Assembly (NCBI GenBank): GCA_031291995.1
Contig: JARLHZ010000030.1
Span: forward strand, 1-62,454
Source of the DNA: Candidatus Doudnabacteria bacterium
Lineage (GTDB): Bacteria; Patescibacteriota; Doudnabacteria; UBA920
Direction of reading: 5' to 3'
DNA length: 62,454 nt
Of this stretch, positions 2,933 through 59,147 are shown piece after piece (the first letter of the stretch is position 1; each line of letters opens with the position of its first letter). The position numbers and the translations under genes are program-made. The notes below the pieces were generated by a model. It ran no database searches, had not been told where the DNA came from, and saw nothing but the letters and a program-made list of their open reading frames with translations.

Positions 2933-4069
2933 ATGGATGAATTATTGTATAAAGACATAACGTACGATATCAGGGGGGCCTGCTTTTGGGTATGGAAAGA
3001 ATTTAGAGGAGCCTTTAAGGAATCGGTTATTGACAGAGCTTTGACGGTAGAACTGAAAAAGCGGGGCAGAATGGTTGAAGACCAAAAACGGCTTGATATT
3101 GAATATCAGGGCGTGAAGGTCGGTACATACATACCTGATAAAATAATTGATGATTCTGTTTTGGTTGAATTAAAGGCGAAAGAGTTTTTAACATCAGGGG
3201 ACATTGACCAATTTTGGAAATATCTAAAAGGCTCAAAATATAAAGTGGGCTTGTTGATTAATTTTGGTCCGAAGGGTTTGGAAATTAAACGCGTTGTGTA
3301 TGATTCGGCGCGTACCGTCCCCGATCCGCATCATGATCCGCGTAGCCGATCCGCATTAGTATCCGCGGAAAAGGGATTTACCCTAATGGAGATAATGGTG
3401 GCCACGGTCTTGTTTGCCATTGTTTTCAGTTCCATGCTCGGGCTGTTTAATTACGTGCTGAAAATTAACCGGCGCACCGAAGCGCTCAGGCAGGCCTCGC
3501 AGGGAGCGAGGGATTTTGTGGAATTTTTGGCCAAGGAAATCCGCAACGGGCAAATAGATTATTATGTTTCCACCGGCGCATATACCGGGAAGATAAACAG
3601 CAGTTCAAGCGTGCCTTGTGGTCCGGCTGGTAACGTTGGTGACACTGTTAAACCTACTGACTTGCCGACTTACGGATTGGAAGACAATAAGCTTGGAATT
3701 ATTAATACCGACAATGTCCAGGAATGTTTTTATTACGGCAAAGCCGACGGCAGTTATGTAGATACCGTAGGGGGCTTACCAAGCACGTTTGCCTATCCGG
3801 GAGGAACCCTGGTCATACAAAAGAGGGATGTTACCGGCGCGCAGATTTTAAATCCGTCAAATTTCCAAATTAACCAGCTGATGTTTTTAATCCGGCCGGT
3901 TTGCGACCCTCACTCTGCGTCATCATGCACAGCTTATCCGACAGGTTACCCGAAAATCCAGCCGTCCGTGGTAATCCTTATCAATTTTACCGTTAAACTT
4001 CCCACCGGCGAGACCGCCCAGCTTTATTACCAAACTTCGGTGTCTTCAAATAAATATGATATACCGTAG
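2933..4069 (+). CDS. In-frame fusion of a GxxExxY / PDDEXK_3-like domain (aa 1-~125) to a prepilin-like protein (class III signal at aa ~154)
   Basis: N-terminal half has YKDITYDIRGACFWVWKEF...VLVELKAKE...VGLLINFGPKGLEIKRVVYD, the GxxExxY family pattern. It is followed by AEKG|FTLMEIMVATVLFAIVF with Glu at +5. No stop codon lies between the two halves. Confidence 0.7.
   Translation: MDELLYKDITYDIRGACFWVWKEFRGAFKESVIDRALTVELKKRGRMVEDQKRLDIEYQGVKVGTYIPDKIIDDSVLVELKAKEFLTSGDIDQFWKYLKGSKYKVGLLINFGPKGLEIKRVVYDSARTVPDPHHDPRSRSALVSAEKGFTLMEIMVATVLFAIVFSSMLGLFNYVLKINRRTEALRQASQGARDFVEFLAKEIRNGQIDYYVSTGAYTGKINSSSSVPCGPAGNVGDTVKPTDLPTYGLEDNKLGIINTDNVQECFYYGKADGSYVDTVGGLPSTFAYPGGTLVIQKRDVTGAQILNPSNFQINQLMFLIRPVCDPHSASSCTAYPTGYPKIQPSVVILINFTVKLPTGETAQLYYQTSVSSNKYDIP
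3317..3368. repeat. 3' arm (ATCCGCG words) of the inverted word repeat; it encodes the linker of the fusion ORF
   Basis: gtccccgatccgcatcatgatccgcgtagccgatccgcattagtatccgcgg is the reverse complement of the 2862-2915 words. Confidence 0.75.
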
Positions 4070-12814: not shown

Positions 12815-13349
12815 TAAATAGAAATTATCGTTCTTACCAAGTAACGATAATTTTGGGTAGATACATCTTAAGAGATTAAGATGATCATTGTAATAGAATG
12901 CATACAGATGAACACAGATTGAAAGCGGATGGACCCGGATTCGTGTTAATCCGTTATGATTTGTGTAAATTAGTATGCAATAAAAACATTGTATCCAAAC
13001 GTAACAGTAATTTTTGTCATCTTTTGCTTTAACGACAAAAGGTGGTCACAAATTGCTAGTCAAATGATTAAAACAGACAAGGGTATATGGTGGATGCCTA
13101 GGTAATATGAGCCGATGAAGGACGCGACAGCCTGCGATAAGCCTCGGGGAGCTGGCAAATAAGCTTTGATCCGTGGATGTCCGAATGGGGAAACCCACAT
13201 ACTGGAAGAGTATGTGCTGCTATGCCGTGGGGTATAGTATGCGGGAACCGTGCGAAGTGAAACATCTCAGTAGCACGTGGAAAATAAATCAATGCGCCGT
13301 AAGGCGTACGAGATTCCGTTAGTAGTGGCGAGCGAACGCGGATGTATAT

Positions 13350-13439
13350 AATTAGTGAATAGTGAAAAGTGATTAGAGATAAGGATAAGGCAGTTTGTCT
13401 TCTCCTATTCTCTTTTCGCTAAGCACTATTTGCTAAATT
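13350..13439 (+). other. About 90-nt long-hairpin expansion (IVS-like) in 23S domain I
   Basis: Inserted just after the conserved ggcgagcgaac box. Arms are aattagtgaatagtgaaaagtgattagagataaggataagg and cttctcctattctcttttcgctaagcactatttgctaaatt. Confidence 0.7.
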
Positions 13440-13727
13440 ATTAGCCTAAACCTAATTAGTGTTGTTGATATCGCAAGATTGAAACTTAAAGATTACAGTC
13501 GTTGCTAGTTAGGTGTTATAAGCAGGAGTCATTGCCGCTCTGTAAAGCGGCAGGGAATTATGTTTGTTGTTTAGCAGAACACGCCTGGAACGGCGGACCA
13601 AAGAGGGTGATAGTCCCGTATCGCGAAAAACCATGCAATTTCCTGACTTTTTCTTGAGTACGACCAGACACGAGAAATCTGGTCGGAAATCGGGTCGACT
13701 AAGATCCAAGGCTAAATACTCATATTA

Positions 13728-13766
<39 letters not shown>

Positions 13767-13960
13767 CACCCCGGAAGGGGAATGAAATAGTATCTGAAAC
13801 CATATACTTACAAGGAGTGGAAGACCTTACTCCGACGTTACGTCGGAGTGGTTAACCGCGTGCCTATTGAAGAATGATCCAACGAGTTAATCTTATGCGG
13901 CTTGATTAAGTCTTATCAAAGACGAAATCGTAGTGAAAGCGAGGATGAATAGTCCGTAAA

Positions 13961-14055
13961 AGGATAAGAGATTAGTGAAAAGAGATAAGAGATAAGGAGA
14001 GGCGCGCAAGTGTTTTATCCTATTCTCTATTCGCTAAGCACTAATCTCTATTCCT
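13961..14055 (+). other. About 95-nt long-hairpin expansion (IVS-like) in 23S domain II, related to 13350-13439
   Basis: Inserted before the gacccgaaacc box. The 3' arm shares cctattctct.ttcgctaagcacta with the first expansion. Confidence 0.7.
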
Positions 14056-14447
14056 TTATGTCGCATGAGTTAGACCCGAAACCCGCGTGAGCTACGCATG
14101 GCCAGGATGAACGTGGTGTAACAACCACGGGAGGTCCGGACCCACTATTGCTGCAAAAATAGGGGATGAGCTGTGCGTAGGGGAGAAATTCCAATCGAAC
14201 CGGGTGATAGCTGGTTCTCCTCGAAATAGCTTTAGGGCTAGCGTCGAGAGTTCCCTTGAGAGGTAGAGCACTGAATGGAAACCTGCTGCGCAAGCGGTAG
14301 GCTCCAACCAAACTCCGAATTCTCAAGGTCAAGATCTCGGCAGTCAGTCCGTGAGGGCTAAGCTTCACTGGACAAATGGAGAAGAATCCACACCACCGTC
14401 TAAGGCCCCCAAATTCTAGCTATAGTGCAAAGGATGTGGGGTTGCTC

Positions 14448-14484
<37 letters not shown>

Positions 14485-15934
14485 TAAAGAAAGCGTAACA
14501 GCTCACTGGTCAAGCGATCCTGCGCCGACAATATATAGGGGCTAAGCTAGGTGCCGAAGACGTGGATCTCCGACGTTACGTCGGAGGTGGTAGAGGAGTG
14601 TTGTACATGGGTTGAAGCGGTATGCGTAAGCGGCCGTGGACTTTGTACAAGTAAGAATGTTGGAATAAGTAATATATATAGAGGTGAGAATCCTCTTCGC
14701 CGAATATCCAAGGTTTCCAGGGCAACGATCGTCGTCCCTGGGTTAGTCGATCCTAAGAGTGGGCCTCAAGAGGTCCATCCGATGGAAAATATGGTTGATA
14801 TTCCATAACCACTGTAACATTATCTTAGGCGGAACGCATCATGGTAAAACTAGCGTTATCTGACTATTAGCGTTGTTGTATTTGTAGGATGGAACTTCAG
14901 GCAAATCCGGAGTTCCGACATCTGTTATTGCATACCTCGCAAGAGATTGTAGTAACAGGTAAAAGTTCGAGAATACAAAGAAACCTGGCAACGGGGATTA
15001 GTTTGAACCAAGGTGTCAAGAAAAGCGTCGAAGTCAGGTGTTATAGTGCTCGTACCGTAAACCGACACAGGTGGATGGGGAGAGAATCCCAAGGCGTCCG
15101 GAACAATGTTCGTTAAGGAACTCGGCAAAAAAGCAGGTGTACCTTAGGTATATACCTTGACCTTTTTTTGAGATTATATCAAAGAAAAAAGGCCCGCAGC
15201 GAAAGACCTCTCCCGACTGTTTACCAAAAACTTAGGTCCGTGCTAAAGCGCAAGCTGATGTATACGGGCTGATGCCTGGCCAGTGTCAGAAGGTTAAACC
15301 CCTCGTCGCAAGATTGGGGGCCAAGCCCTGATGAACGCCGGCAGTAACTATAACTGTCCTATGGTAGCGAAATTCCTTGTCGCGTAAGTTGCGACCCGCA
15401 CGAATGGCATAACGAGTAGAGGACTGTCTTAACGAACATTCCGATGAATTTACAATGGCGGTAAAGATGCCGTCTACCCGCAGCAAGACGGAAAGACCCT
15501 ATGAAGCTTTACTATAGCGTGTCATTGCAATTTTATTTTTATTGTTTAGCCTAGGTGGGAGACTTTGAAACCCCGACGCCAGTCGGGGTGGAGTCAACAG
15601 GTGAAATACCACCCTGTAGAGATGAAATTGCTAACCAATGCCTAACCTGCATTGGGACAGTGGCTCGTGGGTAGTTTAACTGGGGCGGTTGCCTCCTAAA
15701 TGGTAACGGAGGCGTTTATTAAGGTAGGCTAGGTATGGATGGAAATCATACCGGTAGTGCAAACGCATAAGCCTGCTTGACTGCAAGGGCGGCGACCCGC
15801 GCAGGCACGAAAGTGGAAGTTAGTGATCCGATGCGTTCGAGTGGAAGACGCAAAGCCCAACGGATAAAAGTTACTCTAGGGATAACAGGCTGATCCTCTC
15901 CAAGCGTCCACAGCGACGAGAGGGTTTGGCACCT

Positions 15935-16442
15935 GAACATCATTCGGGGTGCTATGGGAGTGATCCCATACCATGTGTCTTTCATCCGTCTCTCCATGTT
16001 CATAGCATGGAGGATATAATTTTGAAAGAAAATAAATTCGGCTTATAACGGTGGAACCGTAGTTAACTATGTGAGAACTCTTTGTTCTAGTTAACCGGTA
16101 ATACCGTGGGAAGTCTGCGCGAAGCGCAACAATAACTATAATGAATAACAATAACCACTGCAGTTGCAGAAGTTATAGTTATAATTATTGTTATAGTTTG
16201 CCCCCCGCATGACCCCGTAACGACTGACCCGAAAGGGGAGGTTTAAATTAGTGATTAGTGAATAGTGCTTAGTGATTAGTACTGCAGGAATGCAGTTACT
16301 ATCCACTACCCACTAACACTGCCCACTAGTTTAGACAACACGCCGACTCTTGTCACAAAAAAGCAGACTACGGAGACTAATCCTAATGTCGCTGGCAAGA
16401 AGAAGATATAGTCTACACCATACGAAAGTATGGAATTAGGTA
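15935..16442 (+). mobile_element. 508-nt group-I-like intron/insertion in the 23S peptidyl-transferase region (after the U equivalent to E. coli ~U2500); no credible ORF
   Basis: It interrupts the universal ggcaccu|cgaugucgg. Intron gggtgc (15947-15952) can pair with exon gcacct (15929-15934), giving a U.G pair at the splice site. There is a GAAA-capped hairpin ccatac-gaaa-gtatgg near the 3' end. Confidence 0.55.
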
Positions 16443-16472
16443 CGATGTCGGCTCATCACATCCTGGGGGTGT

Positions 16473-16509
<37 letters not shown>

Positions 16510-17095
16510 TGGTACGCGAGCTGGGTTCAAAACGTCGTGAGACAGTTTGGTCCTTATCTGCTGTGGGTGTACGAAACTTGAGTAGTCGCATCTCTAGTAC
16601 GAGAGGACCGAGATGCATAGACCTCTGGTGTACCCGTTGTCCTGTCAAGGGCATGGCGGGGTAGCTAGGTCTAGTTAGGATAAGCGCTGAAGGCATATAA
16701 GCGTGAAGCCGTCTACAAAACTAGGTTTCGTTGTTCTAATTTATTAGAACGAAAGGTTCGGGGAAGACTACCCCGTACAACAATCGAAAGTTTTTTGGCG
16801 AAGTAGCAATATGGATCCAAAAGAAAATAGATTTATAGGCTGCAGGTGTAAGCACAGTAATGTGTTCAGCCGAGCAGTACTAATCAACCAAAAGTTTTAA
16901 TTTTCTTTGACTAGCAATTTGTGCATAGAGCGAAGCCCCGCCAAGCGGGGCGTAGCACCTTATTATTCTCCCCCTGCGGGGGGAGATGTCACGCGGAGCG
17001 TGACAGAGAGGGTGCAAGCAAGATACGATGTTTAACAACTTACAATGTTCACAAAGTGCGCCCTTTTAAATTTCCAATAAGTTGGACATTTAAAA

Positions 17096-17206
17096 GGGTG
17101 GCATTTCCAGCCGGGCTCGACCTGATCCCATCCCGAACTCAGTAGTCAAAACGGCTTGGGCCAATGATAGTCCTACGCATGTAGGTGCAAAAGTAGGTGG
17201 CTGCCC
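17096..17206 (+). rRNA. rrf: 5S rRNA
   Basis: cccatcccgaactcagtagtcaaaac core. Terminal helix gggtggc / gctgccc. Confidence 0.85.
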
Positions 17207-17218
17207 CATTTATCAATC

Positions 17219-40542: not shown

Positions 40543-40631
40543 GGCGGAAGCGGAGGGATTTGAACCCTCGAGGGCTGTAACACCCTGCCGCCTTTCCAAG
40601 GCGGTGCACTAGACCACTATGCGACGCTTCC
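40542..40631 (-). tRNA. tRNA-Ser (anticodon GGA), CCA encoded
   Basis: Acceptor GGAAGCG/CGCUUCC, anticodon stem CCGCC/GGCGG with loop UUGGAAA, long variable arm, T arm GAGGG-UUCAAAU-CCCUC. Confidence 0.9.
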
Positions 40632-54205: not shown

Positions 54206-54814
54206 TTAGGGTTGCCGGCGGGACAGCGGCGTGAGTTGAATCTGCTTTGAAAGGTTATAGGCCGCGGGAAGGTCGCTGTCGTTTTTGACAATCACCCGTC
54301 CAATAACGAGCACGCTGTTGTTCGGCGAAGAAACCTGCTTCATGCCTTGTGGCACGGCCCCTTTCCAGTTCGGCCCCGTAATTAAATAGTCGCCGGCTCC
54401 GGTGCCCGTGGTGCGCTTGCCAACATAGGCGAAATTGATGTTTTTTGACGGATCGGTGAACTGCATGCTGTAATAGCGACCCGCTTCGACTCGCGTCGAG
54501 CGAGGCGAGCCGGCCATGTCCGGCACATGCATTACCTGCGCTTCCTTGTTCAAATCAAGCCAGCCCATTACGTAGAGCGTGTCGCGGTTTACGCCGGTAA
54601 CCGCCAACTTGGAGCCAGTGTAGGACTTGTCCATAGGGTTTGCAAAAAGCGATTGCGGCTCCGTAAAGAGCGTGTTGACCGCTATGGGGCCTTGGCCGAA
54701 CCCTTTGTGCAGGATCGCCCGTTTGTACGCGGACAGCATGAGGCGCGGCCATAAGTAGGTAAAGAGGAAGAATGCCGCTGCGCAGACCCCGCTGAATATG
54801 AGTAGATGTTGCAT
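54206..54814 (-). CDS. DUF1254 domain protein with N-terminal TM helix
   Basis: RYYSMQFTDPSKNINFAYVGKRTTGTGAGDYLITGPNWKG. Confidence 0.6.
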   Translation of the reverse strand: MQHLLIFSGVCAAAFFLFTYLWPRLMLSAYKRAILHKGFGQGPIAVNTLFTEPQSLFANPMDKSYTGSKLAVTGVNRDTLYVMGWLDLNKEAQVMHVPDMAGSPRSTRVEAGRYYSMQFTDPSKNINFAYVGKRTTGTGAGDYLITGPNWKGAVPQGMKQVSSPNNSVLVIGRVIVKNDSDLPAAYNLSKQIQLTPLSRRQP

Positions 54815-54822
54815 AGGTGATA

Positions 54823-55491
54823 TTATTTCGTTTTGACAATCGGCGGCACCGTGTAGGTGCGGTTGAGAATCGCCGCGCCGGGAATGTACACGCGCAGCCA
54901 GAGTATAAAGTTGCCCGATGGCGCGGGAAGCCAATTTGACTCACGGTCTATTGGAACCGTGTTTTGGATATAAATATCAGTAGACCCGTCGGCGTTCGGC
55001 ACAAGGCCGGTCCGATCGCTCACGCTGTATCGGTTAAGAGGATTCGGCACGAAATGATTTTTCGCGTCGCCCATGGTGAGCGACCAGAACGCGTCGTTCG
55101 GCGGGAGCTGTCCTGGCGGGAAGTGCATAATATAGTTCTGCCGTCCGTCGAGCGTATGACCCGTGCCATCGGAGTTCGTGTACCAATACATCGCCTCCTC
55201 CGGCACGTTTATCGGGCCAAGGAATGTCCAGGAGTGCGCGGCCCTAAGGAACATGCCGTTGCCCGGCTCGCCGCATCCGTACATGGTCGTCCAGCCGTTA
55301 ATTTTCGTGCCTTTAATTTTCCCATAGACCTGGGCCATAACAAACGCCAGTCCGACGCCAATAAGGACGCCTTGCAATATATCGCTCCGCAGGGTTCTGG
55401 TACTCAAATCGGTAAAGAAAAACAGGCGGATGAGGAAAGAGGCGCACACCGCACCGACTATTCCCATCAAGTATGTGTAAAATTTGCTCAT
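54823..55491 (-). CDS. DUF1214 domain protein with N-terminal TM helix
   Basis: PPNDAFWSLTMGD...NPLNRYSVSDRTGL...DGSTDIYIQ...NWLPAPSGNFILWLRVYIP. Confidence 0.6.
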   Translation of the reverse strand: MSKFYTYLMGIVGAVCASFLIRLFFFTDLSTRTLRSDILQGVLIGVGLAFVMAQVYGKIKGTKINGWTTMYGCGEPGNGMFLRAAHSWTFLGPINVPEEAMYWYTNSDGTGHTLDGRQNYIMHFPPGQLPPNDAFWSLTMGDAKNHFVPNPLNRYSVSDRTGLVPNADGSTDIYIQNTVPIDRESNWLPAPSGNFILWLRVYIPGAAILNRTYTVPPIVKTK

Positions 55492-55595: not shown

Positions 55596-56174
55596 TTACC
55601 AGACATATGGGATGAGCGCCCAGGTCCGCTTTTTATAGTCCGGATATTGGTTCGGGAACTGCTTGGTCATCAGGCTCTCTTCAACCCGTACCCGCCAAAT
55701 AAATATGCCGGAGATGACAATAAAGAGCGCCGCCCAGACGGGGATTACAAATGCCGTTCCCAAAGCTGCGGCAATGATACCGGTATAAATTGGATGGCGC
55801 ACCAAACTGTATGGCCCGGATGTAATAAGTTCATGATCTTCCTTTAAGGCTGGCGCTGCGCTCCAGTTCCTGCCCAAATGCACCCGCGCCCAAATAGCGA
55901 ACGCCACGCCGAGCAGGCACAATACCGTACCAATTGCGGCCAGCGCCGTGTTTGCCGGAACCGCCTGCGAAATTCCCCAGTGCTGCGCCAGCGCACCGAG
56001 CGGCTCCTTTTTCCATATCACAGTTAAAATAACGGCAACAATCACAATCCGCAGCCACGCCAGCCGCCGCCACGGGCTGCGGCCCAGGTCGCGCTTGGCG
56101 CCAAAGGCGGAAATTACCCAAAACAAAATGAATGCCGCCCAGCTTAGGGAAACAATGTAAGTAAATGTATCCAT
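55596..56174 (-). CDS. Isoprenylcysteine carboxyl methyltransferase (ICMT/PEMT) family membrane protein
   Basis: HLGRNWS...LITSGPYSLVRHPIYTG. Confidence 0.7.
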   Translation of the reverse strand: MDTFTYIVSLSWAAFILFWVISAFGAKRDLGRSPWRRLAWLRIVIVAVILTVIWKKEPLGALAQHWGISQAVPANTALAAIGTVLCLLGVAFAIWARVHLGRNWSAAPALKEDHELITSGPYSLVRHPIYTGIIAAALGTAFVIPVWAALFIVISGIFIWRVRVEESLMTKQFPNQYPDYKKRTWALIPYVW

Positions 56175-56433: not shown

Positions 56434-56461
56434 TTGACTTAGCTCCGTAAAAGTATATAAT
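56434..56461 (+). promoter_or_regulatory. Sigma-70-type promoter upstream of the riboswitch
   Basis: TTGACT (56434-56439), 16-nt spacer, TATAAT (56456-56461). Confidence 0.6.
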
Positions 56462-56483
56462 ACTTTTACTTTTAAATTTGATT

Positions 56484-56665
56484 GTTTATTTGGGGAAGTC
56501 CTGTGAGCCTAAGGCTTAAACCGTTAACAATTAATTAATAACCGGTAACCGCAGGTTACTTGTTATAAATTATCAGTTACTAGTTTGTACCTAAGGCAAT
56601 TCAGGCACTGTGCCGCAACTGTAAACCCCGACGTTACGTCGGGGAAGTCAGACTGCCAAATAAAC
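56484..56665 (+). promoter_or_regulatory. Cobalamin (B12) riboswitch aptamer carrying a 90-nt insertion
   Basis: 10-bp P1 (gtttatttgg / ccaaataaac), gggaagtcctgtgag...aattcaggcactgtgccgcaactgtaa core and a B12-box-like gaagtcagactgcc. Confidence 0.65.
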
Positions 56666-56750
56666 TGTTTCTTCCCGAGCAGGAAAATACCTTGGTATTT
56701 TTTGAATCGTCTCGGCAGGAGTCGATTTTTTAATTAACATTCGAGCGCGT

Positions 56751-59147
56751 ATGAAAATTTTAAGATCATTGGTATCGGTCGCAGTCTTAGCTTTTGTATT
56801 ATTTGTAATAATTCCACAGTTTGCGCGTGCCGCCGACGCGTCAACTACGCCGGATGTCGCTACAACCACTCCGGATATTGTGCCAGCCGCTTCGGTAAAT
56901 ATAAAGTTAAACGTGGAAGGTCCGACCTCAACAATTTTTAGCGGGGCTGTTTCCGTCTCGCCATGCGATACGCCGAATAACGCGAGTTCAACGCTTAATG
57001 GCTTTTGTATTTTTTCAGCCGCCGGGCTCAATATTAGCGCCACATGGTCGGCTTTGGGGGTGACGGTAAATTCCATAAACGGCGTTGTGGGGGATTGGCA
57101 ATGGTCGTTAAACGGGACGGTTCAAACTTTCGGCGTTGATGCTTATGCCCCGCAGGCCAATGACAATATCCTGTGGTCCCTGCCGCCCCCGCCACAGCAA
57201 GTTACCCTGACCATCCGCGACGGCGACAACACGGCCTTTTCGAGCCAGGTCCAACTGGTCAATCAAAACGCGCCGGACATTATGGTAACCCCGACCAATG
57301 CCACCACGAGCATTGCGGTTTCCCCGCGCAGCGTTTTGGGCCTGCTCGAACAGCTCCAGGCTTCATCCACGGCTTTTCAAATAACCGATCTTTCATATTC
57401 GGCCAGCTTCAGCTCTTTTTTAATCAATTGCATTAAGGTGCCGGCTGCGACGTCCACGCCCGATTGTTATAACTGGACCGACGCGGTTGACGGGTCATAT
57501 CCGCAGCTCGGTATTGACCATCAAATGCTAAAGGCCGGGGATGTTATATATTTATTCTTTGGTTCGCCTCAGCAGGTGTCGTTGTCGGCGAGTGCCGTGC
57601 CCGCCGGACAGCCGTTTACCGCCACCGCGCAGCAATATGATTTAACGTCAGGAATTTATAAGCCTCTTTCCGGAGTCACAATTGGAATCGGCACCCAAAC
57701 CTCCAGCCCCCCGCTTTATTTTGACGAATTGGCAACGTCAACCGTTGATTCAAACGGCCAGGCCTTGTTTACGTTAAACGCTACCGGAACGTTCGCTGCC
57801 GGTATTAAAGAAGATTATTATTTTCCGACCGCCCCGATTACTATTACTGACGCAACCTCAACCTCCACATCCACGCCGCAATCCGCCGGCAGCGGGAATT
57901 CCGGCGGCACGGCCAGCCATATATATTTAAATATTCCGGGTGCGCTGTCCTTTATTTCCTCCGGCCAGAACGCCGACGGTTCATTTTCTTCCGGCGATTT
58001 GACCGATTGGACCGCCTTGGCTTTTGCCGCGGCCAATCCGGGCGCGCCCAAAACCAAGCTCAAAAATTATTTATTAACCGCCAGCCCGGCCATGTCGGTG
58101 GCGACCGATTACGAGCGCCACGCTATGGCTCTGGAAGCTTTAGGCATCAACCCGTATTCGGGGACTCCTGTAAACTATATCGCGCCTATTTTGGCCGCTT
58201 CGGACGGAAAACAAATTGGTATATCCGATGTTAATGATGATATCTTTGCTCTACTGACCCTGGAACACGCGGGCTACACTTCTACGGATTCGATTATCAA
58301 ACAGGAAGCCGCTTACATTCTTTCCGTGCAAAATCCCGAAGGCAGCTGGGATAAAACGGCGGACATGACGGCGGCCGGCATTCAGGCTTTGGGTCCGCTG
58401 TTCGACATTGACGGTGTTAACGCCGCTCTCGGCCGGGCAGCCGGATATTTGGCATCCACGGAAAAAGCCGACGGCAGTTGGGGAAATATAGATTCCACCA
58501 GTTGGGCGCAAACGGCGATTAACGCGATTATAGAGGCGAACACTCCGGGATTTAATACCGAAAATCCCTGGACATCGTCAGGCGGATTATTTCCGACCGA
58601 CGCGATAGCCAAAGCCCAACTGTCCGACGGCGGTATAAATGTCCCGGCAAACCGCATTTGGAGCACCGGCTATGCCGTAGTCGCGGCTTCGGGCAAAAGC
58701 TGGGACAGTATTTTGCAGTCGTTTCCCAAACCGGCCGCTACTTTGGGCGGAACAAGCGTTTATGAAACCGGGACTTCTACCCCGACTTCCACTATAAATT
58801 CACTGTTAACCTCTACCTCAACTCCGGAAACCGCGACATCAACTTTATCTTCGACCTCATCCGCGCCCTCGCTAATCGAATTGGCAAATCCGATTTTAAT
58901 TATTTCCACTACCACCCCCGCGCCCGCAGTAAAACCCAAAATAAAAACTTTCAGGCCTCGCCGGAAAATTCAAAAACTCCAAAATTCCCCTGCCGTGCTC
59001 GGCGCGTCAACAGCTGCGTCTCCCACCCCAACCGCATTTCAATCGCAATCCTCGCCCAATACTTCCGCGTCCAACAACCAAACCGGCGGCAATTTCTTCA
59101 GCCACCTCTGGCAAGTCATAACCTCATTCTTCGCCCGCCTGTTTTAG
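56751..59147 (+). CDS. Surface protein with two DUF4430-like (transcobalamin beta-domain-like) modules, an Ig-like module, a prenyltransferase/terpene-cyclase-like alpha/alpha-barrel and an S/T-rich tail
   Basis: VNSINGVVGDWQWSLNG...NDNILWSL; WTDAVDGSYPQLGIDHQMLKAGDVIYLFF; repeats QNADGSFSS, QNPEGSWDK, EKADGSWGN and LSDGGIN. Confidence 0.6.
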   Translation: MKILRSLVSVAVLAFVLFVIIPQFARAADASTTPDVATTTPDIVPAASVNIKLNVEGPTSTIFSGAVSVSPCDTPNNASSTLNGFCIFSAAGLNISATWSALGVTVNSINGVVGDWQWSLNGTVQTFGVDAYAPQANDNILWSLPPPPQQVTLTIRDGDNTAFSSQVQLVNQNAPDIMVTPTNATTSIAVSPRSVLGLLEQLQASSTAFQITDLSYSASFSSFLINCIKVPAATSTPDCYNWTDAVDGSYPQLGIDHQMLKAGDVIYLFFGSPQQVSLSASAVPAGQPFTATAQQYDLTSGIYKPLSGVTIGIGTQTSSPPLYFDELATSTVDSNGQALFTLNATGTFAAGIKEDYYFPTAPITITDATSTSTSTPQSAGSGNSGGTASHIYLNIPGALSFISSGQNADGSFSSGDLTDWTALAFAAANPGAPKTKLKNYLLTASPAMSVATDYERHAMALEALGINPYSGTPVNYIAPILAASDGKQIGISDVNDDIFALLTLEHAGYTSTDSIIKQEAAYILSVQNPEGSWDKTADMTAAGIQALGPLFDIDGVNAALGRAAGYLASTEKADGSWGNIDSTSWAQTAINAIIEANTPGFNTENPWTSSGGLFPTDAIAKAQLSDGGINVPANRIWSTGYAVVAASGKSWDSILQSFPKPAATLGGTSVYETGTSTPTSTINSLLTSTSTPETATSTLSSTSSAPSLIELANPILIISTTTPAPAVKPKIKTFRPRRKIQKLQNSPAVLGASTAASPTPTAFQSQSSPNTSASNNQTGGNFFSHLWQVITSFFARLF

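Follow-up and report, generated by a model that had tools for sequence, protein, structure and literature searches.

A predicted cobalamin riboswitch with a hairpin inserted in its L4 loop, upstream of a secreted transcobalamin-like protein in Candidatus Doudnabacteria

The leader RNA and its relatives

We analyzed the 62,454-nucleotide (nt) contig JARLHZ010000030.1 of Candidatus Doudnabacteria bacterium (assembly GCA_031291995.1; forward strand, the whole stretch being called the window below), in which a structured leader RNA precedes an open reading frame (ORF) of 798 amino acids (aa) at 56751-59147 on the + strand. An earlier note on this DNA had read the leader as a cobalamin riboswitch and the ORF as a B12-repressed extracellular corrinoid-capture protein. 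Our analysis arrives at much the same reading: the element is likely a cobalamin riboswitch that represses a secreted, surface-held corrinoid-capture protein when intracellular B12 is sufficient. The ORF is monocistronic, the gene after it being encoded on the opposite strand. The promoter that the note had described as TTGACT-N16-TATAAT is present and matches 11 of the 12 consensus positions of a sigma-70-type promoter; in relatives, TTGAC-type boxes also precede the aptamers at a similar distance. The RNA features are as follows, helices (P), loops (L) and junctions (J) carrying the numbering used for cobalamin riboswitches.

56434..56461, + strand: sigma-70-type promoter; TTGACT at 56434-56439, 16-nt spacer, TATAAT at 56456-56461
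56484..56665, + strand: predicted cobalamin-clan riboswitch aptamer with a class-II-like core, from the match to family model R1 (below), spliced-alignment columns and the minimum free energy (MFE) fold
56484-56493 with 56656-56665, + strand: closing helix P1-P3, a perfect 10 base pairs (bp)
56494-56498, + strand: J3/4, GGAAG, a junction block of the aptamer
56498 and 56500-56503 with 56602-56606, + strand: P4
56504..56601, + strand: L4 T-loop, UGA (56504-56506) and AAUU (56598-56601), split by the 91-nt hairpin P4a (56507-56597)
56609-56617, + strand: P5/L5, with L5 = UGCCG at 56611-56615
56619-56621 with 56649-56651, + strand: P6
56622..56657, + strand: L6 with an 8-bp GC hairpin (56626-56644), B12-box-like AGUCAG (56646-56651), J6/3 ACUG, and the CC that opens the 3' strand of the closing helix
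56672..56685, + strand: P13/L13 hairpin, UUCC-CGAGCA-GGAA; L13 (56676-56681) could pair with L5 UGCCG, one A being bulged
56683..56703, + strand: AU-rich hairpin 2, AAAUAC/GUAUUU, then U6; the extended form uses the P13 3' arm, the U-tailed hairpin itself being 56685-56703
56705..56731, + strand: terminator-like hairpin 3 (terminator scan), AAUCG-U-CUC / GAG-U-CGAUU, loop GGCAG, with U6 at 56726-56731
56751..59147, + strand: secreted transcobalamin-like protein, 798 aa

The blocks that the earlier note had picked out in the aptamer all lie where it had placed them. These are the closing stem, the core blocks GGGAAG, CCUG-UGA...AAUU-CAGG and ACUGUGCCGCAACUGUAA, the GC hairpin, and a B12-box-like AAGUCAGACUGCC at 56645-56657, within which AGUC and G are invariant across the family. 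In P6, A56650 pairs with U56620 as a compensatory replacement of the usual G-C. The MFE of the window leader falls far below that of shuffled sequences (z = -4.5), and when 56484-56665 was folded alone 56 of 62 canonical pairs appeared in the unconstrained MFE structure, the canonical structure lying 4.7 kcal/mol above the MFE.

Standard models do not recognize the element, which speaks against the assignment. A search of the window at Rfam gathering thresholds returned only rRNA and tRNA and no cobalamin family. The RF00174 covariance model, which the earlier note had named as the check on its proposal, scored the intact element at 9.3 bits (E = 4.6) at a permissive threshold, below the gathering score of 31.5, and gave no match even at a permissive threshold on a narrower stretch of the window. 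Thus the window does not reach a gathering score of the Rfam cobalamin clan, CL00101. We attribute the low score to the 91-nt hairpin that sits inside the L4 T-loop.

Relatives of the gene provided a broader view of the element. A one-genome-per-species scan gave 176 loci (designated by L numbers) encoding a relative of the protein, of which 80 were kept. A single-sequence nhmmer search with the window leader as query detected the element in approximately 40 loci, in each case upstream of the homologue and on its strand, the conserved part being that 3' of the insertion, and the core motif GUGCCGC[AU]AC[GU]GU stands upstream of the gene in 65 of the 80. Among 17 relatives tested, six displayed gathering-level matches to the cobalamin clan directly upstream of the gene (L071, RF01689, 57.2 bits; L005, RF01482, 51.4; L050, RF00174, 38.9; L053, RF00174, 37.5; L003, RF01689, 36.9; L070, RF00174, 32.8), and these matches overlap the nhmmer matches to the window leader. 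L001, the closest insertion-free relative, scored 36.2 bits against RF01689 (E = 5.7e-5) versus a threshold of 36.5. This shortfall of 0.3 bit in an element without an insertion implies that the lineage sits at the edge of the Rfam models.

A covariation alignment was assembled from the aptamers of 29 relatives, with the window and every insertion-bearing L4 element excluded, and the class-II cobalamin architecture, mapped from the Rfam alignment of L071, was imposed on it. Under this architecture 94.5% of cells are standard pairs and 15 of 22 pairs have changed on both sides, the covarying helices including P5 (U-A to A-U) and P6 (G-C to U-A). None of 500 shuffles reached the observed values, and slid 3' partners gave 28-49% pairing. 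An RNAalifold consensus on the same sequences paired the invariant P5/P6 core wrongly, as a UGCCG...CGGUA hairpin, and was set aside in favor of the L071-mapped architecture, which has covariation support. The covariance model built from the 29-relative alignment, again without the window (R1), detects the element in 72 of the 80 loci; each match lies upstream of the gene on the + strand, and the 943 kb searched contain no other. In the 62-kb window R1 yielded a single match at 56579-56669 (29.3 bits, E = 1.6e-5), its 5' half mis-threaded through the insertion. When 56507-56597 was spliced out in silico and the window added to the alignment, 21 of the 22 family pairs formed and 23 of the 25 invariant columns matched, the two misses being both sides of one P4 pair that has changed from G-C to U-A.

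Because R1 finds the element in 72 of 80 loci, relatives reach Rfam scores, the imposed helices covary and the spliced window fits them, we regard the window RNA as very probably a cobalamin-clan riboswitch aptamer. Two features that mark clan CL00101 are in place: the conserved blocks (GGGAA junction, L4 UGAAAUU, L5, ACNGU, B12 box AGUCNG) follow one another in canonical order, and helices P1/P3, P4, P5 and P6 surround the junction with covariation in relatives. The riboswitch proposed in the earlier note therefore stands, by way of homologous elements in relatives that reach RF00174, RF01482 or RF01689 gathering scores and of a spliced window that fits the covarying architecture. Our literature search for cobalamin riboswitches in Patescibacteria found nothing on point. 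At one locus, L088 (500-1580, homologue P0011, in which the protein is encoded by one fused gene as in the window), neither a riboswitch nor the core motif was detected upstream; the homologue is preceded by a 210-aa gene that has no Pfam match, and the riboswitch may have been lost there.

The L4 hairpin and the expression platform

The earlier note had recognized an insertion at 56508-56597; the insertion is present, and we place it at 56507-56597 (91 nt). P4a is a self-contained fold (-27.9 kcal/mol), and the L4 loop rejoined after splicing reads UGAAAUU, identical to the Rfam consensus. The distance from GGAA to the core motif is 24-26 nt in most elements, 42-62 nt in 11 relatives and 116 nt in the window, and these 11 relatives carry hairpins at the same L4 site with approximately 17-37 nt extra. 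All 12 insertions take the form of a closed hairpin, flanked on the 5' side by a 3-nt linker, mostly UGA, and on the other side by the 4-nt linker RAUU. Infernal treats the L068 hairpin as an insert within L4, and R1 threads the 11 insertion-bearing relatives full-length at 48-77 bits with their cores intact. Judged from these comparisons, P4a is an optional helix inserted in the L4 T-loop; we found no literature description of helices inserted into L4.

An insertion at this site is not readily reconciled with a working switch, since L4 is described as a highly conserved T-loop that directs global folding through a contact with L6 (PMC6158498). The riboswitch might on this ground be a relic, in which the L4 insertion broke the folding of an ancestor that worked and left the gene constitutive or permanently attenuated. 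The window's hairpin is the longest on an intact core among the elements compared, and the closest relatives (L001, L002, L003, L086, L089) have no such insertion. L083 (7750-7960, homologue P0020) points the same way: it pairs a 110-nt AU-rich insertion at the same L4 site with a core in which GGGAA has become GAGAA and the P13 motif is absent, its R1 score is 14.4 bits, and it looks like a decaying riboswitch. Large insertions can thus accompany decay. The remainder of the window element, however, is intact in its invariant columns and family pairs as counted above, in L5, in P13/L13 and in its terminators. Its insertion is a closed hairpin whose flanking loop letters, UGA and AAUU, are exactly consensus, and the 11 relatives with conserved cores tolerate shorter hairpins at the same site. 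Weighing these sequence features, we consider a relic unlikely and expect that the riboswitch is probably still functional despite the insertion.

We also considered the insertion as a mobile or repeated element and rejected this possibility: no second copy was found in the window or the 80 loci, and local alignments between insertions were not significant after multiple testing (the window's best p was ~0.03 over 30 comparisons, and L083-L4 versus L002-L6 gave p ~0.003). L002 (5715-5810), L008 and L006 lack an L4 insertion but carry 76-95-nt AU-rich insertions in L6, at the P6 extension site. The occurrence of long insertions in L4 or L6 among close relatives suggests that both apical loops of the aptamer accept them in this lineage.

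A few nucleotides downstream of the closing helix, CCCGAGCAGG is identical in 64 of 65 elements and folds as a 3-4-bp hairpin, YCC-CGAGCA-GGR (P13). The invariant loops L5 (UGCCG) and L13 (CG(A)GCA) would form 5 bp plus a bulged A, which makes L13 a candidate kissing-loop partner of L5; a bulge within a kissing loop is known from env8 (PMC10327014). The U-tailed hairpins noticed earlier downstream were both recovered, at 56685-56703 and 56705-56731, each followed by U6. Hairpin 2 is present in all eight members of the window's subfamily (the window, L001, L002, L003, L006, L008, L086 and L089). Most relatives have a variable hairpin followed by a UYCUGC...GCAGR hairpin with a U-run right before the AUG, and a terminator hairpin with a U-run was detected in 58 of 65 elements.

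The invariant motif can also pair with the terminator. Across the family, its duplex with the terminator 5' arm and loop averages -10.4 kcal/mol versus -6.4 for shuffled motifs, and in 30 of 58 loci at most 5 of 100 shuffles equal it. This putative antiterminator draws on the P13 loop and 3' arm in the main family and on the 5' half of P13 in the window's subfamily: in the window, CUUCCCGAG (56671-56679) pairs with the top of the hairpin-3 5' arm and its loop, CUCGGCAGG (56711-56719), over 8 bp with one mismatch (-10.9 kcal/mol), a duplex that beats 195 of 200 shuffles. The same pairing occurs in the MFE structures of L001, L002, L086 and L006. It replaces the alternative pairing between GGCAGGAGUC and the B12 box suggested in the earlier note, which we discarded as unconserved because the terminator loops of relatives differ.

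By analogy with characterized switches, we infer that the platform is an OFF switch acting through termination. Several observations sit uneasily with this mechanism. The invariance of L5 and L13 precludes a covariation test of the kissing loop, hairpin 2 lacks an explanation in the proposed switch, the window antiterminator is ~2 kcal/mol weaker than the terminator states (-12.6 to -13.0), and its register differs from that of the main family. The AGGAG at 56717-56721 was rejected as the Shine-Dalgarno sequence of the 798-aa ORF, as it lies 29 nt from the ATG with no in-frame canonical start between, and M1 aligns with the family start.

The 798-aa protein and its genomic setting

Over 270 homologues were recovered, every one from a Patescibacteria/Parcubacteria-type genome; the protein is organized as follows.

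56751-56831, + strand: signal peptide, aa 1-27; helix aa 3-20, FARA/AD at aa 24-29
56895..57560, + strand: tandem beta-grasp (SLBB / DUF4430) domains, aa 49-143 and aa 150-270, from Pfam, AlphaFold2 and Foldseek
57570..57848, + strand: immunoglobulin (Ig)-like beta-sandwich, aa 274-366, all-beta, predicted local distance difference test score (pLDDT) >90; aligns with macroglobulin (MG)-domain proteins (complement, alpha-2-macroglobulin)
57933..58712, + strand: alpha6/alpha6 barrel (toroid) of 12 helices, aa 395-654, from AlphaFold2, Foldseek and a profile search
58752..59144, + strand: disordered Ser/Thr/Pro-rich stalk, aa 668-780 (pLDDT <50), and conserved hydrophobic C-terminal helix, aa 782-798 (helical at 782-797 in the AlphaFold2 model)

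The earlier note had described a signal-anchored, Ser/Thr-rich stalk. The stalk is real and C-terminal, but the N-terminus resembles a cleavable signal peptide rather than an anchor, with M1 and Ala27 invariant in family alignment A1. After the stalk, a family-wide C-terminal helix motif FxxxxWxxIxSFFxxLF (window 59094-59144; alignments A1 and A3) may represent a lineage-specific membrane anchor or sorting signal.

The two DUF4430-like modules proposed earlier were borne out by Pfam, which scored DUF4430 in two stretches of the window protein at 39 bits against a cutoff of 23.8, and by structure. A full-length AlphaFold2 model built with 117 homologues had a mean pLDDT of 82.9, with domains mostly >90, and a predicted template modeling score of 0.48, so that the arrangement of the domains relative to one another is unreliable. 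A separate model of aa 45-275 (pLDDT 94.5) was used for a Foldseek search of the PDB and matched the human transcobalamin beta domain (5no0, 5np4) with template modeling (TM) scores of 0.71-0.72 and root-mean-square deviations (rmsd) of 2.5-2.6 A over approximately 110 columns, together with haptocorrin (4kki), intrinsic factor (3kq4 and 2pmv) and a bacterial DUF4430 structure (3u7z). Tandem ubiquitin-like matches with an rmsd of ~15 A were dismissed as merely two beta-grasp units in a row. The transcobalamin-like clade of SLBB domains is marked by a beta-hairpin that follows its helix (PMC1796856), and both window domains display it in the AlphaFold2 model, with helix 86-91 followed by strands 95-100 and 103-109, and helix 195-205 followed by strands 210-217 and 222-229. 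By Pfam gathering score and by fold, these are transcobalamin-like SLBB domains.

In Lactobacillus sakei, separate transcobalamin alpha-like and beta-like proteins occur in an energy-coupling factor (ECF) operon for which heme scavenging has been proposed (bioRxiv 10.1101/864751), archaeal versions might bind a distinct metabolite (Burroughs et al., PMC1796856), and no cobalt-coordinating residue can be assigned in the window protein. Capture of heme, another tetrapyrrole or a different cofactor is accordingly conceivable. We judge it quite improbable given that a cobalamin-clan riboswitch controls the gene in 72 of the 80 species-level loci and that the beta domains find their best structural counterparts in the domains with which transcobalamin, haptocorrin and intrinsic factor bind corrinoids.

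The alpha/alpha barrel with cyclase-type repeats claimed earlier exists as a 12-helix barrel, and SQHop_cyclase_C (PF13243) scores 18.6 bits, below its cutoff of 26.1; the eukaryotic Cobalamin_bind family (PF01122), which the note had also suggested searching, gave no match at E<=1 to the window protein. Across 25 family members, Pfam matched SQHop_cyclase_C in 25, DUF4430 in 24, and PF01122 and TED_complement in 10 each, the PF01122 matches being at E<=0.01 with a best value of 4.1e-6. A Foldseek search with the full-length model aligned the barrel with transcobalamin 2bb5 (E = 2e-5, 328 columns).

Other barrel matches speak for terpene cyclases or for surface defence. The barrel lies closer to drimenyl-diphosphate synthase (8zg0, rmsd 3.8 A, 283 columns), and a profile search of PDB sequences found squalene-hopene cyclase at 3e-13 and did not find transcobalamin. 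These two results, with the missing PF01122 match, detract from a corrinoid-binding barrel and would suit a terpene-cyclase/prenyltransferase-like enzyme, as would a conserved DNDD-like stretch, in which the window protein has VNDD (aa 494-497) instead of the DNDD of the family consensus. Complement and alpha-2-macroglobulin proteins that combine MG domains with a thioester domain (TED) head the Foldseek list, and PF07678 (TED) matches weakly in 10 of 25 family members, as a thioester surface defence domain would. Class II cyclases, however, use a two-barrel (beta-gamma) interface, and the presence of a single barrel here argues against such an enzyme. Cysteines occur only at aa 72, 86, 227 and 239, and the absence of any from the barrel (aa 395-654) excludes a CGEQ thioester. 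With one 12-helix barrel, PF13243 below cutoff and no barrel cysteine, the protein does not belong to the class II cyclase or TED families. The barrel is moreover part of a secreted protein that also carries two transcobalamin-beta-like domains and stands under a B12 riboswitch, and we find the enzyme or defence interpretation scarcely credible.

Taken together, the cobalamin-clan element, the two transcobalamin-beta-like domains and the 12-helix barrel support the extracellular corrinoid-capture reading, with ligand binding and regulation as predictions, and by analogy with the animal carriers the protein probably binds corrinoids at the cell surface. The searched literature yielded no B12-binding measurement for any bacterial protein of this class, which tempers this view.

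The first beta-grasp module is encoded on its own in most relatives, by a gene of 175-219 aa directly upstream of a 650-750-aa gene. Two-gene operons of this kind, in which a small DUF4430 gene precedes a DUF4430-Ig-barrel gene under the riboswitch, occur at L081 (7316-9971), L084 (7442-10250) and L085 (7456-10199). The fused, single-gene form is found in the window and in P0002, P0011 and P0014. The window's 798-aa ORF is thus a fusion of two genes that are separate in most relatives.

The surroundings of the gene lend the capture reading no help. No B12-dependent enzyme, corrinoid transporter or cob/cbi gene is encoded within the 62-kb window, and no genes for a transporter or a B12-dependent enzyme were found in the neighborhoods of seven relatives, including L081, L083, L084, L085, L086 and L089. 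The gene neighborhoods of relatives differ from one another. That the source organism cannot synthesize B12, as the earlier note supposed, is plausible for Patescibacteria.

The genes just upstream appear unrelated to B12. A DUF1254/DUF1214 gene pair in overlapping frames occupies 54206-55491 on the opposite (-) strand, and an ICMT/PEMT-type methyltransferase gene (55596-56174) adjoins it. Elsewhere in the window, the 23S rRNA gene (13067-16903, +) spans 3,837 nt versus a 2,925-nt model and contains several insertions, for example one of 149 nt near model position 280, and no ORF of at least 110 aa lies inside it; intervening sequences are typical of rRNA genes in the Candidate Phyla Radiation (CPR). 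There is no 16S gene in the 13 kb upstream, and a 5S gene follows downstream (17094-17209, +). In an ORF at 2933-4066 (+), a PD-(D/E)XK nuclease domain (PDDEXK_3, aa 7-121) is joined to a type IV pilin N-methylation motif (aa 145-168); a prepilin peptidase and a further pseudopilin are encoded close by (287-1087, 1212-1931). The ORF may be a genuine fusion, or the ORF listing may have run two genes together. An 87-nt tRNA at 40545-40631 (-) has a long variable arm and the anticodon loop UUGGAAA, which suggests tRNA-Ser(GGA).

Proposed mechanism, comparison with known systems and meaning

In the mechanism that we favor, a bound corrinoid would stabilize the kissing loop between L5 and the invariant L13 of P13, as homology to Priestia megaterium metE suggests. 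With P13 locked, hairpin 3 and its U-run (56705-56731) would form and transcription would terminate. When the ligand is absent, P13 would melt, its 5' half would pair with the 5' arm and loop of hairpin 3 as an antiterminator, and the gene would be read. The protein would then be exported by way of its cleavable signal peptide and held at the cell surface by the C-terminal stalk and helix. As in transcobalamin, a corrinoid may be held by the alpha/alpha barrel on one side and a transcobalamin-beta-like beta-grasp domain on the other, with the second beta-grasp domain serving as a second binder or hand-off module. A membrane transporter would be encoded elsewhere in the genome.

The RNA resembles most closely the class-II cobalamin riboswitches (RF01689 AdoCbl-II, env8-type), which form clan CL00101 with RF00174 and RF01482. 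The GGGAA junction, P4 with its UGAAAUU T-loop, P5/L5, P6, the B12 box and a short P13 whose loop is a candidate kissing partner of L5 are shared, and in their Rfam alignments L071 and L001 follow the class-II architecture one helix after another. The window differs in its Rfam score of only 9.3 bits and in the hairpin inside L4, shorter versions of which occur in 11 relatives. Its closing helix is continuous, whereas class II riboswitches have a J1/3 internal loop that is a determinant of selectivity (PMC6158498). Further differences are an L6 hairpin of variable length, an L5 that reads UGCCG versus a UCCCG consensus, and the invariant CGAGCA of L13.

For the platform, the closest counterpart is P. 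megaterium metE, a repressing transcriptional corrinoid riboswitch whose mechanism was proven by compensatory mutagenesis (Kennedy et al., PMC10327014). The order is the same in both: aptamer, a P13 whose loop can pair with L5, an antiterminator sharing P13 nucleotides, and an intrinsic terminator. In the window the mechanism is deduced from this likeness, P13 has only 3-4 bp, and an A has to bulge out of the kissing loop, as in env8. Unlike metE, the subfamily of the window builds its putative antiterminator from the 5' side of P13 instead of the 3' side, with one more U-tailed hairpin in between.

Secreted bacterial proteins that join an SLBB domain and an alpha/alpha toroid in either order, often with Ig domains and a second SLBB gene, were described by Burroughs, Balaji, Iyer and Aravind in 2007, who predicted B12 scavenging by organisms without synthesis (PMC1796856). 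The domain order beta-beta-Ig-alpha that the earlier note had singled out as reversed is confirmed in the window, but is not new, as that study had already placed the barrel on either side of the beta-grasp domain (PMC1796856). The window protein unites a signal peptide, SLBB domains bearing the clade beta-hairpin, an Ig fold and a C-terminal toroid in one chain, and the second SLBB gene is found in relatives. The 2007 class comes mainly from Firmicutes and euryarchaea, generally beside CbiO/CbiQ-type transporter genes and sometimes with a Gram-positive (LPXTG-type) anchor. The window protein, by contrast, comes from Patescibacteria, is not linked to a CbiO/CbiQ operon or other transporter, has a different, anchor-like C-terminal helix and fuses the two genes, and cobalamin-riboswitch control is documented across its family.

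Animal transcobalamin, intrinsic factor and haptocorrin (2bb5, 2pmv, 4kki; PF01122 and PF14478) are built from the same two folds, with the beta domains at TM ~0.7 and rmsd 2.5-2.9 A and the barrel aligned over approximately 300-330 columns. In the window protein the order is reversed, the beta domain is duplicated and an Ig-like domain stands between, and at 11-18% identity the ligand contacts are unidentifiable. We do not file it in the eukaryotic PF01122 family, as it has neither a match to that model nor the N-terminal-barrel order. BtuG and BtuH of Bacteroides, in work attributed to Wexler et al. in 2018, are said to be riboswitch-controlled surface lipoproteins that capture corrinoids with high affinity ahead of a membrane transporter. 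The likeness lies in the proposed role only, BtuG being a beta-propeller and both being outer-membrane lipoproteins in btuB loci.

The riboswitch class and the predicted protein class are both already known, and nothing here is categorically new. What is new is the family-wide pairing of riboswitch and gene in Patescibacteria; a riboswitch variant with a continuous closing helix, an invariant UGCCG/CGAGCA pair, an optional L4 helix and borderline or failing Rfam scores; and, in the protein, the tandem-beta, Ig and barrel fusion with its conserved C-terminal helix. A larger claim can be formulated, which we hold to be possible and rather doubtful as a whole: that the family is a distinct Patescibacteria subclass of cobalamin riboswitches, an L4-permissive working switch whose operon is the main, until now unrecognized route of corrinoid uptake, with the two beta domains perhaps working as a relay. 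Such a subclass would be marked by a continuous P1-P3 without J1/3, an L5 of UGCCG, an invariant L13 of CGAGCA and an L4 helix of 17 to 91 nt that creates a three-way junction, and the route would be one by which ultra-small, host-attached bacteria take corrinoids from their surroundings or from the host surface.

Patescibacteria (CPR) have tiny genomes and are thought to rely on other cells for cofactors; to our knowledge, the routes by which they acquire them are largely unknown. At least 72 species-level genomes carry the element directly before a transcobalamin-like gene, which makes corrinoid acquisition testable in this group by RNA-ligand and ectodomain-binding assays. Standard Rfam thresholds miss this lineage, as the window (9.3 bits) and its insertion-free neighbor (36.2 versus 36.5) illustrate, and the ability of the conserved L4 T-loop to accommodate an extra helix bears on riboswitch annotation and on the structural rules for T-loops. 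For the protein, a large deep-branching bacterial group is added to the relatives of the animal B12 carriers and, if the larger claim above is true, the bacterial ancestry of the animal transcobalamin architecture would extend beyond Firmicutes.

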